Source: a virus. From it: a stretch of 13,766 nucleotides of DNA. Of the stretch, positions 145 through 12,583 are shown piece by piece (position 1 is the stretch's first letter; the number at the start of each line of letters is the position of its first letter). The DNA is taken from UHGV virus genome UHGV-0072288. One strand, written 5' to 3'. The translations under genes and the position numbers were made by a program. The notes under the pieces were generated by a model, which saw nothing but the letters and a program-made list of their open reading frames with translations, ran no database searches and had not been told where the DNA came from.

Positions 145-1138
145 CTAGTCGGTGGACATTATGTGGACACTCCCACGCATAGGGTTAAATCGTATGGCAT
201 CAGTCAGATAATCTGGGGCGAAGTGAGCATATGTCATTGTTTGCTCGATTGTTGTATGACCCAAAATACGCTGTAGCGTGATGATATTCCCGCCGTTGAT
301 CATGAAATGTGTTGCGAAGGTATGGCGTAAAACATGCAGTGCCTGACCTTTCGGCAAGTCTGGCTTAATCTTACGAAGAACATCGCGAACTCGCTCATAG
401 TTGGTATCGAACAATTTCCCCGATTTGCGTGTAAGGATGTAGTCCGCGATTTCCTTCGATATCGGAACAGTACGAGCTGGGCCGGTTTTGGTCTTAACAA
501 AGGTCACACGGTTACTTATCACGTTTTCAGCTTTAAGATTACTGGCTTCACCCCCATCGTGCTCCTGTATTCAGGCAAAGAACGACAACTCTGCGATCAT
601 CCCCTGTAAGGGCATTCAGCAAATGGTGGATCTCTTCTTCGGACAGAAATGACATTTCTGTGTTTTCCAGACGTAACTTCTTCACGGCGCGAAACGGGTT
701 TTCGTGATGAAATTCTTCCATATCTATCAGCAAACTGAACATGCTGGACATGGAACAGAAATCCCTGTTTACCGTGCCAGCAGATACTCCACTATGAAGT
801 CGTTCTGCACGATATTTCATCAGAAAGTTGCGGGTAAGCTCGTACACTCTGGGTTCCGCCATTTCTCGGTTGATTATTTCCAAACGCTTTTTATATGAGT
901 CACCATAGTTGTGATTCTTTCCATGGTAGCTCCACCATAAAGAAATTAACTCGGATACAAGCCTCCTGTCTGCGGGTTTATCCTGCCATTCTTTATCGTG
1001 AAAGTTTGTCAGTACATACCGCTCGTATGCCTGTGCTTCCGCCTTTCTGTCAAATTTGCGTCGAATCCTTCTTCCTGAGGTTCCGCGCGGTCTAACGTCC
1101 ACTTCAAAACGACCATCATCAAGCTTCTTAATCGACAT
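145..1138 (-). pseudogene. int: Tyrosine recombinase/integrase (P2 Int-like), reading frame broken by a +1 frameshift in a C5 run (551-555)
   Basis: Two adjacent minus-strand ORFs (548-1165 and 145-522) in different frames. N-terminal part MSIKKLDDGRFEV...LCLNTGARWG-stop; C-terminal part carries the catalytic tyrosine-recombinase region (HVLRHTFATHFMINGGNIITLQRILGHTTIEQTMTYAHFAPDYL). Removing one C from 551-555 gives a contiguous ~331-aa ORF (...GARWGEASNLKAENVISNRVTF...). Start set at ATG 1138 (GGAGGG 7 nt upstream) rather than the tool's 1165. Confidence 0.75.
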
Positions 1139-1204
1139 AGCGAAGCCCTCCGATGTATGAATCATTATGTAAATTTTGCGCTAACGCATAGAAAAACCAG
1201 ATGT

Positions 1205-2837: not shown

Positions 2838-3056
2838 ATGCTTACAGTGACCTCTCATGCAAGTGAAAGTGTCATTCACAAGGCATTTTCAGTGCTGACA
2901 GAATATTACAACGGCAAAAAGGTATATCAGGTTATTAAGCCAAAACATTATTTCTCTGTTCATGTTTCTTATCGCTGGCGATTACTGAGTAAGGATAAGG
3001 GCAGAAGCTGGGAACTAATGACACATGAGCGATATAACAAGCAGTACAGAATATAG
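2838..3056 (+). CDS. Hypothetical small protein (72 aa)
   Basis: ATG 2 nt after the exonuclease stop, co-directional, ends just before the primase-helicase gene. No recognisable motif. Confidence 0.4.
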   Translation: MLTVTSHASESVIHKAFSVLTEYYNGKKVYQVIKPKHYFSVHVSYRWRLLSKDKGRSWELMTHERYNKQYRI

Positions 3057-5766: not shown

Positions 5767-5831
5767 CCTAACTTTATTGTTAGGGGAAGGAGCGAACATT
5801 GAAGCAATAGGGGCGTTATCTTTATTGCTTC
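5767..5831. terminator. Two hairpins between convergent primase-helicase and glycosyltransferase genes (candidate terminators)
   Basis: Hairpin CCTAAC-TTTATT-GTTAGG at 5767-5784. Hairpin GAAGCAATA-(13 nt)-TATTGCTTC at 5801-5831 followed by a T-rich stretch on the + strand. The second overlaps the stop of the minus-strand gene. Confidence 0.4.
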
Positions 5832-6541
5832 ATTCTTATTTTAAAGTTCTTTAATTTACCGTACAGAGTATCCCGCAGGGAAAACGAAGGAACCCAATCA
5901 AAACCAGTACGCCAGGGGCGTGGACTGCCATGAAAGCAAACAACCGCCACATTATCAGGGACTTTCCCTGTCGCAGCCTCAGAGGCTAAATTTGCATTGA
6001 AGCCAATCATCGAGGGGGTGGCGATGTCACATTTATAACTAACAATTGAGCCAGGAATGATATCCTGCCATAGGGCTGGTTTTATGATGCTACCGAGAAA
6101 TCCCTGATCACCCCATTTGTCTTCAGTCTGACAATTGCGCATAATTTTCTCAGGATCAATAATGAATTGTTCCCAAATCGTCTTTTTAATCGACGCCGGA
6201 ATCATCATTATTGATGAGTTTACTCTTGAGGCATGGTTAAACTCCCGAAGCATTGTAAATTTCTTCGCACCTTCGAAAATATGAATATCTCCCGTGACCA
6301 CAACATCTACGTCAAAATAGAGTAAATCTTGGTCTCCAAGGACTGGGTGATTAGGATTAAATAGTTCAATTTTAGACCACCATCCCGGCCAGTTATAAAG
6401 CAAAGGGGTTGTGTTAACTCCAGGAATATTATCTGCATCGGTTAAACATATAGATGGAATATCTTTGAACTGACGATGAAGCCATTGGGCGTGTTTAGGG
6501 GTAAACTCTTTACTACATTTAAGAACTGAGACTATTAACAT
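5822..6541 (-). CDS. GT-A fold nucleotide-sugar glycosyltransferase-like protein (GT8-like motifs), hotspot cargo
   Basis: 239-aa ORF with strong SD (GGGAGG 6 nt before ATG at 6541). DxD motif after a hydrophobic strand (LLYFDVDVVV). C-terminal FHGSPRPW resembling the GT8 H-x-G-x-x-K/R-P-W motif. Noticeably AT-rich. Confidence 0.6.
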   Translation of the reverse strand: MLIVSVLKCSKEFTPKHAQWLHRQFKDIPSICLTDADNIPGVNTTPLLYNWPGWWSKIELFNPNHPVLGDQDLLYFDVDVVVTGDIHIFEGAKKFTMLREFNHASRVNSSIMMIPASIKKTIWEQFIIDPEKIMRNCQTEDKWGDQGFLGSIIKPALWQDIIPGSIVSYKCDIATPSMIGFNANLASEAATGKVPDNVAVVCFHGSPRPWRTGFDWVPSFSLRDTLYGKLKNFKIRMKQ

Positions 6542-6680: not shown

Positions 6681-7010
6681 CTATGCGGCAGCAGTGCCGT
6701 CCTGACTCAGAAACTTTAACATCAGCTGCTTTTGCTGGATATCAAGGCTGTTACAGATAGTGGCGATCAACGCATCGCTGGATTTGGCGCTGGGGCTGAT
6801 GGTATGTGAGAATGTCATATTCATCACAAAAGTGTGACCACATTCAACATCGGTACACGCGCAATATAAATCCGACAGTTCCTTGTGTTTTCGGGCTGTT
6901 TTTTTGATAACAGCCCTTGCCTCACATACCGGACAGTAAACCTTCATTACCCGCATATCCATCGCTCCGGAAGTTGGAAAACGATGATATTTTAGCCTTT
7001 TTGCGAACAT
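6681..7010 (-). CDS. ogr: Ogr/Delta-family zinc-finger protein (late-gene transcription activator family)
   Basis: CPVC-x22-CACTDVEC-GHTFV pattern matching P2 Ogr (CPLC...CQNVNCSATFI, from memory). Start ATG at 7010 overlaps the portal stop (TAATG) with SD GGAAGGTG upstream. Alternative internal starts at 6956/6947 would give an Ogr-sized ~88-91 aa protein. Confidence 0.65.
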   Translation of the reverse strand: MFAKRLKYHRFPTSGAMDMRVMKVYCPVCEARAVIKKTARKHKELSDLYCACTDVECGHTFVMNMTFSHTISPSAKSSDALIATICNSLDIQQKQLMLKFLSQDGTAAA

Positions 7011-8028
7011 TAATCACCTTCCAGCTCACTGTCTTTCAGGAAATTAAGGTACAGGTGGGGCGGTACATCACTTTCCTGTTCCACTGCGGCGGTAAACATG
7101 CGCTGAATGGGCAAAATTTCTGCTTTGCGGTAGGTTTTGGACGCTTTCTCAACATCTCCCATTACTGCGCCGTTCGTCGGGATAATCCCCGCCAGTCCTG
7201 CCGGGAATCGATGCGCGGTCAGTACGTCCTGGGCGCTGATGCTCTTGATGTTCTGAAACTCATCTTTGGCGCTGATATCCCCAATCGGGATAAATTTGAT
7301 GCCGTCCGGATCGCCTTTGGGGATGTTCACAAACATGGTGCTGAAGTTCCCGATCCCCTTTGACTGCTCCAGCTTCTGAATAATTTCTTCTTCCACTTCA
7401 TCAGTCATATTTGGGTCGTTACAGTAGATCATGCCACCTGTGTGTCCGCCGTTATGGTAGTAACGCCGACGAAAAATTGTTGCCTCACCGTTAAGCAGGG
7501 CAGAATGGATACCGCTGATATAATCCGGCAGACCATAAATCGCCTGTTGCGGATCGTACTGCCTGAGAAAAATAATATCTTCAGGCGGATAAATCATCGG
7601 TTCACCCTGCTGCAGTACCACAAACTCCCCGGTCTTACGCTGGCGGGTGAAGTGGAAGCCGGGGGTTACGGTCCCCCCCCCCCCCCCCAGCCGTTACGCA
7701 CTTTCAGAATGGCCACATCACCGAAGGTCAGCCAGTCGAACACGGCTGCACCAAGCTGTTCATGCGTCAGTCCGCCGTCTTTATAGTTTGCCGTCACCAT
7801 ATTGCGACGGGCATACAGCACACCGCCGTGCTGCGCGTTCAGGTTCACCAGTTGCGCCAGCGCCAGCCGGTCAATCGGGAGCGTCCAGTGTTCCGCTTCA
7901 TTGTCATACCAGACGTCTGTGTAGTTTGTGCCGGTCGTCAGAATGGGTTCCGGTTTACCCAGGGTAATAAGGCTCATATGGCGCGGCTTGCTGGCGGTGC
8001 GGCGTTCCCTGTATTTCCGTTTTTTCAT
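7010..8028 (-). pseudogene. Q: Portal protein (P2 gpQ-like), frame interrupted by a 16-nt homopolymer
   Basis: Two minus-strand ORFs (7666-8028 and 7010-7621) together give ~340 aa, matching the ~344-aa P2 portal. The upstream frame reads ...LKVRNGWGGGGGP-stop through the G16 tract. The downstream frame is open back through the tract (...GGGGGTVTPGFHFTRQRKTGEFVVLQQGEPM...). ATGA overlap with the terminase stop at 8025-8028. Confidence 0.8.
7673..7688. repeat. Homopolymeric tract C16 (+ strand) = G16 in the portal coding sense
   Basis: Direct count: 16 consecutive C at 7673-7688. Tract lengths of 14 or 17 would join the two portal reading frames; the observed 16 does not. Confidence 0.95.
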
Positions 8029-9158
8029 GCTGCTTTCCCTAAGTTACCCCAGCGTGATTTTCGCTGGTTTTCAAAGTTTAATGGCTCGTTGTCAATGGCA
8101 TGGGCGATAGCCCAGAAACTGTCTGCGTGTCCTGTTTCTGCTGTGCGATCGGCGACGAAAGTCATTGCGTTGCCGCTGGCCGTGGACGTACGGCGGATGG
8201 TCATAAAGCTGGCGGCGATTTCGGTCTTCTCCTTATCCCATTCCACGCGGCCGTCTTCGATAACGTCGATCATCTTCATCACCAGACGATTTTTGGTCTC
8301 GACGCCGTAGCGGATCGCCACTGCCTGACGCATGGCAAAGTGCTGAACGTCTTCAAAGACACCGCTACCCAGTCCAGTGATATCAATGCCGATGTAGGTC
8401 ATGTTGTACTGGCCAAACAGCTTCTTAATCTGTGCCGCCTGCCACTTCCAGTTCATCCCCTGCCAGTGGAATACACGCAGTACCCGAAATTTTTCGCCGG
8501 CCACTATCGGCGGCGCGATGATCACGAAGGTGGAGGTGTCTCCGCTGCGAGCCGGGTCATAACCCGCCCACACTTCACGGTTGCCGAACGGCCGGGGCAG
8601 GTTTTCGTCATGATCCTCCCAGAAATACCAGGTTGCACCAATCTGGCGGCTTTTCAGGATGTTCCTGATTTGCTGATGAAGATTAGCGCGAAGGTGTTTC
8701 TGGTAACCGAAAAGGTGCTCCAGCGCGAACCGGTCAAAATCTTCCTGTGTCAGTCCGCTGATGTCGTTCTTTTTGTACTTGCCACGTTTCCGGGGCTTTT
8801 CGTCGCCACCGGACTGACGCGCCGGCGCATCATTTTCACTGTGTTTAATTTCTGCCAGCTTTTCCTGATGCTTATTGTGCTGTGCACGTAGTTTCACCAG
8901 GTGAGAAACGAGACTGTCCAGCTCCCGCAGCTCCAGCTCCGATTTCCCTTCACGTAATGTCAGTGACTGAATGCGACGGTTTAATGCATCTTCGGTGGAT
9001 TCATGACTGAGTAATTCCGCCCAGCAATATTTCTCCGCCCAGTAATAGACAATGCGTCTGTTAGGCAGATTAAGTTCGCTGGCAATTTCCTGCGGGGTAT
9101 AGCGTTTTAAATAAAGCGCCCGCGCAACGCCTTTTAATTCTTCTGAATATTTAGCCAT
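8025..9158 (-). CDS. P: Terminase large subunit (P2 gpP-like), apparently shortened: N-terminal HTH plus C-terminal nuclease, ATPase core largely missing
   Basis: N-terminal HTH (YTPQEIASELNLPNRRIVYYW). Deviant Walker-A-like KSRQIGAT followed almost immediately by nuclease-type motifs (AGYDPARSGDTSTFVI; YIGIDITGLGSG; HADSFWAIAHA). 378-382 aa versus ~590 aa recalled for P2 gpP. Start uncertain (GTG 9173 or ATG 9158, neither with a good SD). Confidence 0.65.
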   Translation of the reverse strand: MAKYSEELKGVARALYLKRYTPQEIASELNLPNRRIVYYWAEKYCWAELLSHESTEDALNRRIQSLTLREGKSELELRELDSLVSHLVKLRAQHNKHQEKLAEIKHSENDAPARQSGGDEKPRKRGKYKKNDISGLTQEDFDRFALEHLFGYQKHLRANLHQQIRNILKSRQIGATWYFWEDHDENLPRPFGNREVWAGYDPARSGDTSTFVIIAPPIVAGEKFRVLRVFHWQGMNWKWQAAQIKKLFGQYNMTYIGIDITGLGSGVFEDVQHFAMRQAVAIRYGVETKNRLVMKMIDVIEDGRVEWDKEKTEIAASFMTIRRTSTASGNAMTFVADRTAETGHADSFWAIAHAIDNEPLNFENQRKSRWGNLGKAA

Positions 9159-9301
9159 GCACACATTATGCACGGGCGTTTGTATATTAAATCCCGCTTT
9201 ATTTCTGATGTGTTCGGCTAATAGCCTATATCCGAAATGAAGTGAATGCGGCGGTTAATTTTATTGGCGATACTGAAAACCGCAGCATGAACGGAGGCAA
9301 T
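9159..9301. promoter_or_regulatory. Divergent late-promoter region between terminase (P) and scaffold (O) genes
   Basis: Position equals the P2 divergent P/O late-promoter interval. Strong SD GGAGG at 9294-9298 before the O ATG. No TGT-N12-ACA Ogr-type dyad found by eye. Confidence 0.35.
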
Positions 9302-11214: not shown

Positions 11215-12252
11215 ATGCAACTGTCACCGGCACAGCGCCACAGCGCACGAATTGAAGCGGAGCGGTTACTGCGACAGCAGCAGTCTCTGGACACGGAAAC
11301 CAGCCTGCATATTCAGATTGTCGCGCTGGAGAAAGATGTCGCCGCAGCTGCAGCGATTGAAAGCCGCGCTGAGCGAATGGAATTTAAGCGTGATGTGCTG
11401 TTACCGCGCTGGATGCCAACCGCGCAAGCCGGGACGGTTATCCAGACAGAGCGCATTAACGGTCGCGTGTATGAGCTGGCCACCAGTGAGGATGTAGTGA
11501 TCGCTTCCGGTACGGCCTGCGCATTACTGCCGGTAAAAGCCACCGGCACCGGGGGCGCATATAACCTTGCGCCGGGATATTACCGCATTCTGCCGGTTGC
11601 CGTTGACGGTATCAGCCACGTGGCCAGCGAAGAAAACTGGCTGACCGTACCGGGCGCGGATGAAGAAAGTGATGACGAGCTGCGCGAACGCTGCCGCAAT
11701 CAGTTCAATCTGGTGGGGAATTACCACACTGACGCCGTTTACCGGTCGATGATTGCCGGCGTTGCAGGGCTGAGTATTGACCGGATTTTCTTTGAACATG
11801 AAGCGCCGAGGGGACCCGGTACCGCCAACGCGTATCTGTTGCTGGACAGCGGGGTGGCTTCTTCGCCGTTCGTGGATGCCGTCAATGACTATATCAACAC
11901 GCAGGGGCATCACGGCCACGGTGATGATATGCAGTGCTATCCCATGCCGGAAACGCTTCATGATCTGTCCGTCACAGTTTATGTCAAAAATCTGGCCAAT
12001 TTCAGCGATGAGGACAGGAAAACCCTGAAGGACGGGGTGGAGAACATGATCCGCTGTGCTTTTCGTGAGAATGCTGATTATGACGTCAGGAAGACGTGGC
12101 CATATTCGCGTTTTTCCTTTTCTCAGCTGGGGCGGGAGATCCACAGGACATTTGCTCAGACGGAATCACTGTCTTTTTCACTGGGTGATATCACCAGCGA
12201 ACTGAGTGTTCCACGCCTGAAATCGCTTGCGGTTGTTGTTGAAAATGAGTGA
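11215..12252 (+). CDS. Chimeric ORF: terminase small/endonuclease subunit (gpM-like) N-terminus (~73 aa) fused to a baseplate protein J-like body
   Basis: N-terminus MQLSPAQRH...KRDVLLPRWMP matches the gpM start (MTSPAQRH...KRELLPFWLPW, from memory). The remainder (...ESDDELRERCRNQF...GVASSPFVDAVNDYI...) resembles P2 gpJ (...ESDTDYRLRIQQAF...GVASEDLLAVVRNAL...). Implies an in-frame deletion of the M-to-J interval. Confidence 0.5.
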   Translation: MQLSPAQRHSARIEAERLLRQQQSLDTETSLHIQIVALEKDVAAAAAIESRAERMEFKRDVLLPRWMPTAQAGTVIQTERINGRVYELATSEDVVIASGTACALLPVKATGTGGAYNLAPGYYRILPVAVDGISHVASEENWLTVPGADEESDDELRERCRNQFNLVGNYHTDAVYRSMIAGVAGLSIDRIFFEHEAPRGPGTANAYLLLDSGVASSPFVDAVNDYINTQGHHGHGDDMQCYPMPETLHDLSVTVYVKNLANFSDEDRKTLKDGVENMIRCAFRENADYDVRKTWPYSRFSFSQLGREIHRTFAQTESLSFSLGDITSELSVPRLKSLAVVVENE

Positions 12253-12583
12253 GTTCCTGAAAAAGCTGGCCGGGATGGTGCTTCCTTCCTGGATGAACAA
12301 AGGCGAGCCGGCGAAGCTGCTGAAAACGGCGCGGCGGTTCTGGACTGAGGTTTACGGCTGGGTTACGTGGCCAGTGAATCAGTTCGATCCGCTGACGTGT
12401 ACGCCGGCATTACTGAACCTGCTGGCGTATGACCGCGATATACCGACCTGCTTTTGCGCTGGTTTACCGGTTATGTTGAACGTTCACAACCAGCTGAAAA
12501 CGGTTATCAGCGTCTGTTCATTCGTGAGCTGGCCGGTGTTTTTGAAAGGATGTGGCCATGTTCATTTCAGCACCCGACATTAA
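12245..12583 (+). CDS. Tail protein I-like (gpI / YmfQ family), C-terminal part doubtful
   Basis: ATG 12245 overlaps the upstream stop (ATGAGTGA). N-terminal ~65 aa (...VNQFDPLTCTPALLNLLAYDRDI) resembles gpI (...WNPDTCPANLLPWLAWAFSVDRWD). After ~12440 the frame is Cys-rich and atypical, while frame 2 opens at 12433 and stays open to the window end. Confidence 0.45.
   Translation: MSEFLKKLAGMVLPSWMNKGEPAKLLKTARRFWTEVYGWVTWPVNQFDPLTCTPALLNLLAYDRDIPTCFCAGLPVMLNVHNQLKTVISVCSFVSWPVFLKGCGHVHFSTRH

Follow-up and report, generated by a model that had tools for sequence, protein, structure and literature searches.

Whether a long homopolymer within a phage structural gene acts as a genetic switch, marks the decay of a prophage or was made during sequencing and assembly is the question raised by a perfect run of 16 cytosines in a P2-like element. 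The window analyzed here, a stretch of 13,766 nucleotides, is an entire metaSPAdes metagenome contig (ERZ1741973 NODE_991_length_13766_cov_4.40777) with a k-mer coverage of 4.4. The tract spans positions 7673-7688 and reads C16 on the plus strand and G16 on the coding strand of a P2-family (PBSX-type) portal gene (7010-8028, minus strand). It is the sole homopolymer of at least eight nucleotides in the window, and a run of 16 lies well past chance, as shuffled sequences give an expectation of 0.01 occurrences for C12. All three of the above options had been left standing by a sequence-only reading of this DNA. The evidence argues that the tract, together with the garbled 24 nt adjoining it, is a sequencing/assembly artefact and that the DNA itself most likely carries the native portal allele TGGGGGGATGTGGTGGCACTGTACCCGCTGCCGGCACTCTATACCCGCC, a reading to which we assign a probability of 0.83-0.85.

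The portal gene appears as two pieces, an N-terminal fragment at 7666-8028 (120 aa) and a C-terminal fragment at 7010-7648 and on. The C-terminal fragment matches the Pfam profile Phage_portal (PF04860) with an E-value of 9e-11, and the fused portal sequence retrieves 522 homologues with a top E-value of 1.8e-209, which assigns the gene to the portal family by both profile and full-length homology. The N-terminal frame stops just past the tract at ...KVRNGWGGGGGP, corresponding to ...NGWGGGGGP and a stop codon, and the C-terminal frame extends to 7010 and has no stop back across the tract. The location of a perfect C16 inside a portal coding sequence and the arrangement of a closed upstream and an open downstream frame were thus correctly described from the sequence alone. 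The two frames are joined at tract lengths of 14, 17 and 20, giving products of 338, 339 and 340 aa, respectively. The earlier statement that lengths of 17 or 14 fuse both parts therefore holds, but the accompanying idea of a poly-Gly insert does not, because the change is a same-length replacement. The native portal in relatives is intact and has 339 residues (WP_000746492.1); the G17 product is equally long, yet its residues 116-127 are all non-native. Restoring a full-length portal by one extra base, as proposed, is right as arithmetic and misleading in biological terms. Among 120 portal homologues (59-93% identity), the native residues at the patch are strongly conserved, with valine in 112/120, leucine in 114, proline in 119, a second leucine in 119 and tyrosine in 112 sequences. 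No tract length gives the native protein, since 12 consecutive residues, several of them nearly invariant, are replaced.

Comparison with the complete genome NZ_AP023286.1, which is identical to the window over more than 900 nt on each side, delimits an aberrant patch at 7649-7682 (minus strand), where 34 nt take the place of 35 in the native sequence, at the cost of about 15 differences and a net -1 frameshift. The native coding strand reads TGGGGGG ATGTGGTGGC ACTGTACCCGCTGCCGGCACTCTAT ACCCGCC, and that of the window TGGGGGG GGGGGGGGGG ACCGTAACCCCCGGCTTCCACTTC ACCCGCC. Only six of the 16 guanines (7683-7688) match the native G6; the next ten stand in place of the native ATGTGGTGGC, with each non-G base changed to G and the length kept. 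In other words, G replaced each of the five non-G bases within 16 nt of one strand, 16 nt for 16 nt, and the tract thus has the pattern of a substitution and not of an expansion, as judged from this alignment. The 24 nt beyond the tract are corrupted yet still recognizably similar to the 25 nt of the native sequence (shuffle p=0.024), so that the patch reads as garbled native sequence and not as foreign DNA. A homopolymer over-call of the 454 or Ion Torrent type was considered and rejected, as it would merge the guanines to G11 and shorten the sequence.

The native allele is readily found elsewhere. Eighteen complete E. coli genomes carry G6 with 100% identical flanks and an intact 339-aa portal, as do one further metagenome contig in ENA and six IMG/VR contigs with respect to G6 and the intact portal. 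No variation in tract length was observed at any of the loci with the upstream 25-mer (the ENA contig and the six IMG/VR contigs) or in the 18 E. coli genomes, all of which have G6. The 120-aa truncated product occurs a single time among about 15 billion proteins, in the window contig itself. A 35-mer from the patch has no match in 185,579 GTDB species-representative genomes, and a 40-nt patch query has none at E<=10 in 5,426 E. coli genomes. Among the sequences found, the patch is unique to the window contig. Likewise, when orthologous portals were checked for a Gly-rich insert at the tract, as had been suggested, neither a Gly run (GGGG) nor TVTPGFHF occurred at the patch position in any of the 120 homologues.

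These data bear directly on the proposal that the tract is a hypermutable contingency locus toggling the portal ON and OFF via slipped-strand mispairing, and thereby virion assembly. A 16-nt homopolymer in coding sequence would indeed be prone to slippage, and the frame is restored at lengths 14, 17 and 20. However, at least 25 related loci all have G6, the tract is known from a single contig, and the in-frame product lacks native residues that 112-119 of the 120 homologues share. Moreover, the element cannot build virions (see below), and its other assemblies break or hold Ns exactly at the tract. Neither tract-length variation nor a functional in-frame product nor a functional pathway was found, and we regard the switch as extremely improbable.

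Further evidence comes from other assemblies of the same element. Four of them are 100% identical to the window outside the patch, and each either ends at 7648 or has its sole N-gap on the patch. Two MEGAHIT contigs, L017 (32 kb, ERZ27239385) and L019 (ERR525732, PRJEB6456), both end exactly at window position 7648, with ACCCGCCAGCG as their first bases. The scaffold L014 (SAMEA2579949) has N40 as its only gap, at 7649-7681, between ...GGCTGGGGGGG and ACCCGCC...; its contig end before the gap is G7, one G above native. The scaffold L016 (SAMEA3541529), whose name and accession point to a different cohort, retains the native G6-ATGTGGTGGCACTGTA, followed by N25 and then CCCGCCAGCG (CCCGCC). As the native left half is present here, the interval appears to be uncrossable for short-read assemblies even on the native allele. 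Only the metaSPAdes contig gets across, and all sister assemblies fail at the patch. The assembly gap or coverage loss expected of an Illumina error zone is therefore seen in L017, L019, L014 and L016, with sample independence partly established: L014, L015, L019 and perhaps the window possibly stem from one sample, so that the agreement of these assemblies is not fully independent.

The same site was also inspected in portals of draft isolates. In two Salmonella enterica sequences (P0010 and P0013) and one from Yersinia pestis (P0151), the contig ends at the motif boundaries described below, both of which are represented; two of these partial proteins end at ...GWGD and ...ALYT, and one begins with RQRK. 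This suggests that isolate assemblies, too, are at times broken at the native site, though other partial sequences of the cluster end elsewhere and enrichment is not established. In addition, a portal of Citrobacter freundii (SUX71895.1, on a 5.03-Mb contig) has, as deposited, a frameshift within the same 40-nt zone, ending in ...GDVVALYPAAGTLYPPA and a stop; the cause is an indel of 1 nt, real or erroneous, close to CCC in TACCCGCTG.

The boundaries of the patch are marked by sequence motifs. On the right, GGCGGG (7642-7647, plus strand; CCCGCC on the coding strand) lies where other assemblies end or resume; on the left, GGCTGG (7687-7692, minus strand) leads into the native G6. Both are instances of GGCNGG, and among the 55 instances in the window, the sole convergent pair with a spacing of 10-80 nt is the one that brackets the patch. 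On both strands, the motif sits directly upstream of the first miscall, as GGCTGG+GGGG on the coding strand and GGCGGG+T on the plus strand. The two motifs form the arms of an imperfect inverted repeat, whose hairpin in the native sequence shows no significant stability (z=-1.6). On Illumina instruments, sequence-specific lagging-strand dephasing is known to be set off by GGC motifs and by inverted repeats; 49-64% of the miscalls then equal the preceding reference base, and convergent error sites give rise to coverage loss and assembly gaps (Nakamura 2011, PMC3141275). In an ungapped coding-strand alignment of the patch, the mismatching base equals the preceding native base in 13 of 17 cases (binomial p=3e-4) and still in 9/12 outside the tract (p=0.004). 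The corresponding model for the opposite strand accounts for 8/25 mismatches, which is not significant. A steep fall in coverage downstream of GGCNGG, located one nucleotide upstream of CCCGCC, has also been reported (Van den Hoecke 2016, PMC4872057), and L017, L019 and L014 stop precisely at this point. The artefact option is thus supported by the uniqueness of the patch, the shared break base, the boundary motifs and the lag signature.

From these features, we infer the following course of events. The 35-nt interval between the two inward-facing GGCNGG motifs would cause lagging-strand dephasing during Illumina sequencing-by-synthesis, and reads entering from either side would deteriorate within it, with miscalls tending toward the previous base. 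Minus-strand reads are expected to lose quality just after GGCTGGGGGG and plus-strand reads just after GGCGGGT. In a G-rich stretch, repetition of the previous base would turn GGGGGGATGTGGTGGC into G16. At low coverage, clean k-mers spanning the interval would be lacking, so that MEGAHIT contigs would stop at its edge and scaffolders would insert Ns. By default, MEGAHIT discards k-mers seen only once, which fits a patch resting on singleton reads. metaSPAdes retains singleton k-mers, and its contig may have been threaded through one or a few corrupted reads. Several points speak against this account, among them the possibly shared sample and the lack of significant hairpin stability mentioned above. 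The patch loses a net 1 nt and is followed by perfect sequence, for which one dephased read offers no simple explanation, so that some stitching of read ends has to be assumed. Where a single GGCNGG motif is present, the coverage drops in the literature amount to only about 25%, and isolate genomes assemble the site without trouble; complete failure would therefore require low coverage in combination with the convergent arrangement.

A weaker variant of the artefact explanation invokes two-colour Illumina chemistry, in which dark cycles without signal are called as G; such cycles would have produced a poly-G run within a read, and the low-coverage assembly would have taken up that read. The conversion of all five non-G bases of the 16-nt stretch to G on one strand and the contig coverage of 4.4 agree with this variant, and the three changes from T to G are all found at NTG, the context for which two-colour G over-calling has been reported (PMC13218037). 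It leaves unexplained, however, the 24 garbled non-G bases with their lag signature, as well as the breaks of other assemblies at the same base by CCCGCC. Moreover, at least one sister assembly derives from PRJEB6456, which we take to be a four-colour HiSeq 2000 project. We therefore consider the two-colour variant unlikely.

The alternative that the patch is a real decay lesion, with a mutated patch or a long G tract carried by a defective prophage lineage and Illumina reads and assemblers struggling with it, has to be weighed against the state of the element as a whole. The same P2-like prophage resides between pheL and raiA in 18 complete E. coli chromosomes, in which its portal is intact. 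In the window, the terminase large subunit gene (8025-9173, minus strand) has an in-frame internal deletion of 645 bp (junction 8621-8623, 3-nt microhomology) that removes the ATPase core and leaves a protein of 377/382 aa with Terminase_5 and Terminase_6C. The junction is identical in three assemblies. A second deletion of about 8.2 kb (junction 11426-11427, 2-nt microhomology) fuses gpM and baseplate J into an ORF of 345 aa (11215-12252, plus strand), and a third removes about 3.9 kb (junction 12437-12441, 5-nt microhomology). Proteins spanning the latter two junctions were found in ENA metagenome assemblies only, and were absent from NCBI isolates and from 5,426 complete E. coli genomes. 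The integrase gene (145-1165, minus strand) is split into 548-1165 and 145-522 by one additional C at 551, which turns C4 into C5. Five contigs share this base across MEGAHIT (ENA), JGI 3300029086 and metaSPAdes (the window), and its recurrence in several assemblies marks it as a real feature of the lineage, unlike the portal patch. Both the integrase fragment and the proteins across the junctions turn up again in two to five other contigs (MEGAHIT, JGI and scaffold) whose sequences agree base for base, which rules out chimeric reads as the source of the three deletions and the frameshift. The element also lacks about 12 kb with genes for head completion, tail and lysis. Judged by its gene content, it is a real defective prophage, and the terminase deletion together with the missing head, tail and lysis genes would preclude virion assembly whatever the state of the portal.

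Several observations on this prophage family were made alongside. In E. coli PK5 (L005, 12324-14096), the capsid gene of the same prophage is fused over a large deletion, and in E. coli HZ13 (L006, 11517-12497), the prophage carries an ISKpn26 insertion/deletion, and its integrase contains an internal stop. Between the primase gene and ogr, the window has a conserved ORF of 239 aa (5822-6541, minus strand) without a Pfam match, which carries the annotation hypothetical protein (WP_000909748.1) in every relative and may be a cargo or moron gene. An ORF of 72 aa (2838-3056, plus strand) is annotated as a 'ParE family toxin-like protein' in PK5 and HZ13 and is unannotated in NZ_AP023286.1.

That the element is truly decaying, by deletions and a frameshift that recur in independent assemblies and in different forms in other strains, speaks for a genuine lesion in the portal; the G7 end of L014 and the failure of all assemblies of the lineage at the patch point in the same direction. 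Nevertheless, five length-preserving substitutions to G plus about ten nearby changes, all within 40 nt and with more than 900 identical bases on either side, correspond to no known mutational process, and a donor sequence is absent from 5,426 E. coli genomes. Were the 24-nt part real, reads of the other strand would extend contigs as far as the tract, yet the contigs stop at ACCCGCC. A gap also occurs at the same place in L016, a sample with the native left half, and the lag signature points to chemistry. A decay lesion is thus disfavoured and quite unlikely. Very unlikely, too, is the related possibility that the lineage carries a long unstable G tract, arisen de novo in the portal of a decaying P2-like prophage, on which Illumina reads and assemblers fail; if true, this would be one of the rare cases of a hypermutable homopolymer formed de novo in E. 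coli.

Other genetic origins of the patch were examined and set aside. Gene conversion from another portal allele is opposed by the lack of GGGG or TVTPGFHF at this position in all 120 homologues (59-93% identity), and templated mutation from elsewhere in E. coli by the lack of any match to the 40-nt query in the 5,426 genomes (E<=10) and to the 35-mer in GTDB. Inversion between the flanking inverted repeats was dismissed by eye, as the reverse complement of the native sequence is unlike the patch. An IS insertion behind the contig breaks would place IS sequence at the contig ends and leave gaps of about 1 kb, compared to the 25-40 N present. A diversity-generating retroelement does not fit either, given that there is neither a reverse transcriptase nor a template repeat and that the changes are not adenine-specific.

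Returning to the artefact as the preferred reading, the portal is probably intact at the patch position, and the defects of the prophage have other causes, which are real. The locus itself carries little biological weight; its practical value is that of a clean example, in which a convergent GGCNGG pair can cause Illumina assemblies of low coverage to break or to gain a spurious homopolymer with a pseudo-frameshift. Scans of metagenome contigs for phase-variable loci or pseudogenes would mis-score such sites. Long homopolymers bracketed by these motifs in low-coverage SPAdes contigs should hence be filtered or compared with other assemblies.

Among known systems, the closest relative of the element is the intact P2-family prophage at pheL-raiA of NZ_AP023286.1, with which it shares 99.9% identity outside the patch, the gene order and the chromosomal flank; the window lineage is set apart by a frameshifted integrase and by three deletions of its own, with junction proteins known only from metagenome assemblies. 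Homopolymeric-tract contingency loci, which mediate phase variation via slipped-strand mispairing in, for example, Haemophilus, Neisseria and Campylobacter, resemble the tract in having a long G/C homopolymer in coding sequence whose length sets the frame. They differ from it in that here the relatives show no length polymorphism, no functional ON state exists, the element is defective and the tract comes from one low-coverage contig. The two-colour poly-G artefact (PMC13218037) shares the over-calling of G and the T>G changes at NTG contexts; however, it normally affects read tails and does not cover the neighbouring non-G miscalls and the motif-bounded breaks seen here. The Illumina sequence-specific errors at GGC/GGCNGG (PMC3141275; PMC4872057, citing Ekblom 2014 and Schirmer 2015) share the trigger upstream of the error start on both strands, miscalls that for the most part copy the base before, a break positioned one base upstream of CCCGCC and the coverage loss and gaps at convergent sites. 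A net loss of 1 nt is atypical for errors of pure substitution, and what would set the present case apart is that corrupted reads were built into a deposited contig, where the G-rich context turned them into a 16-nt homopolymer.
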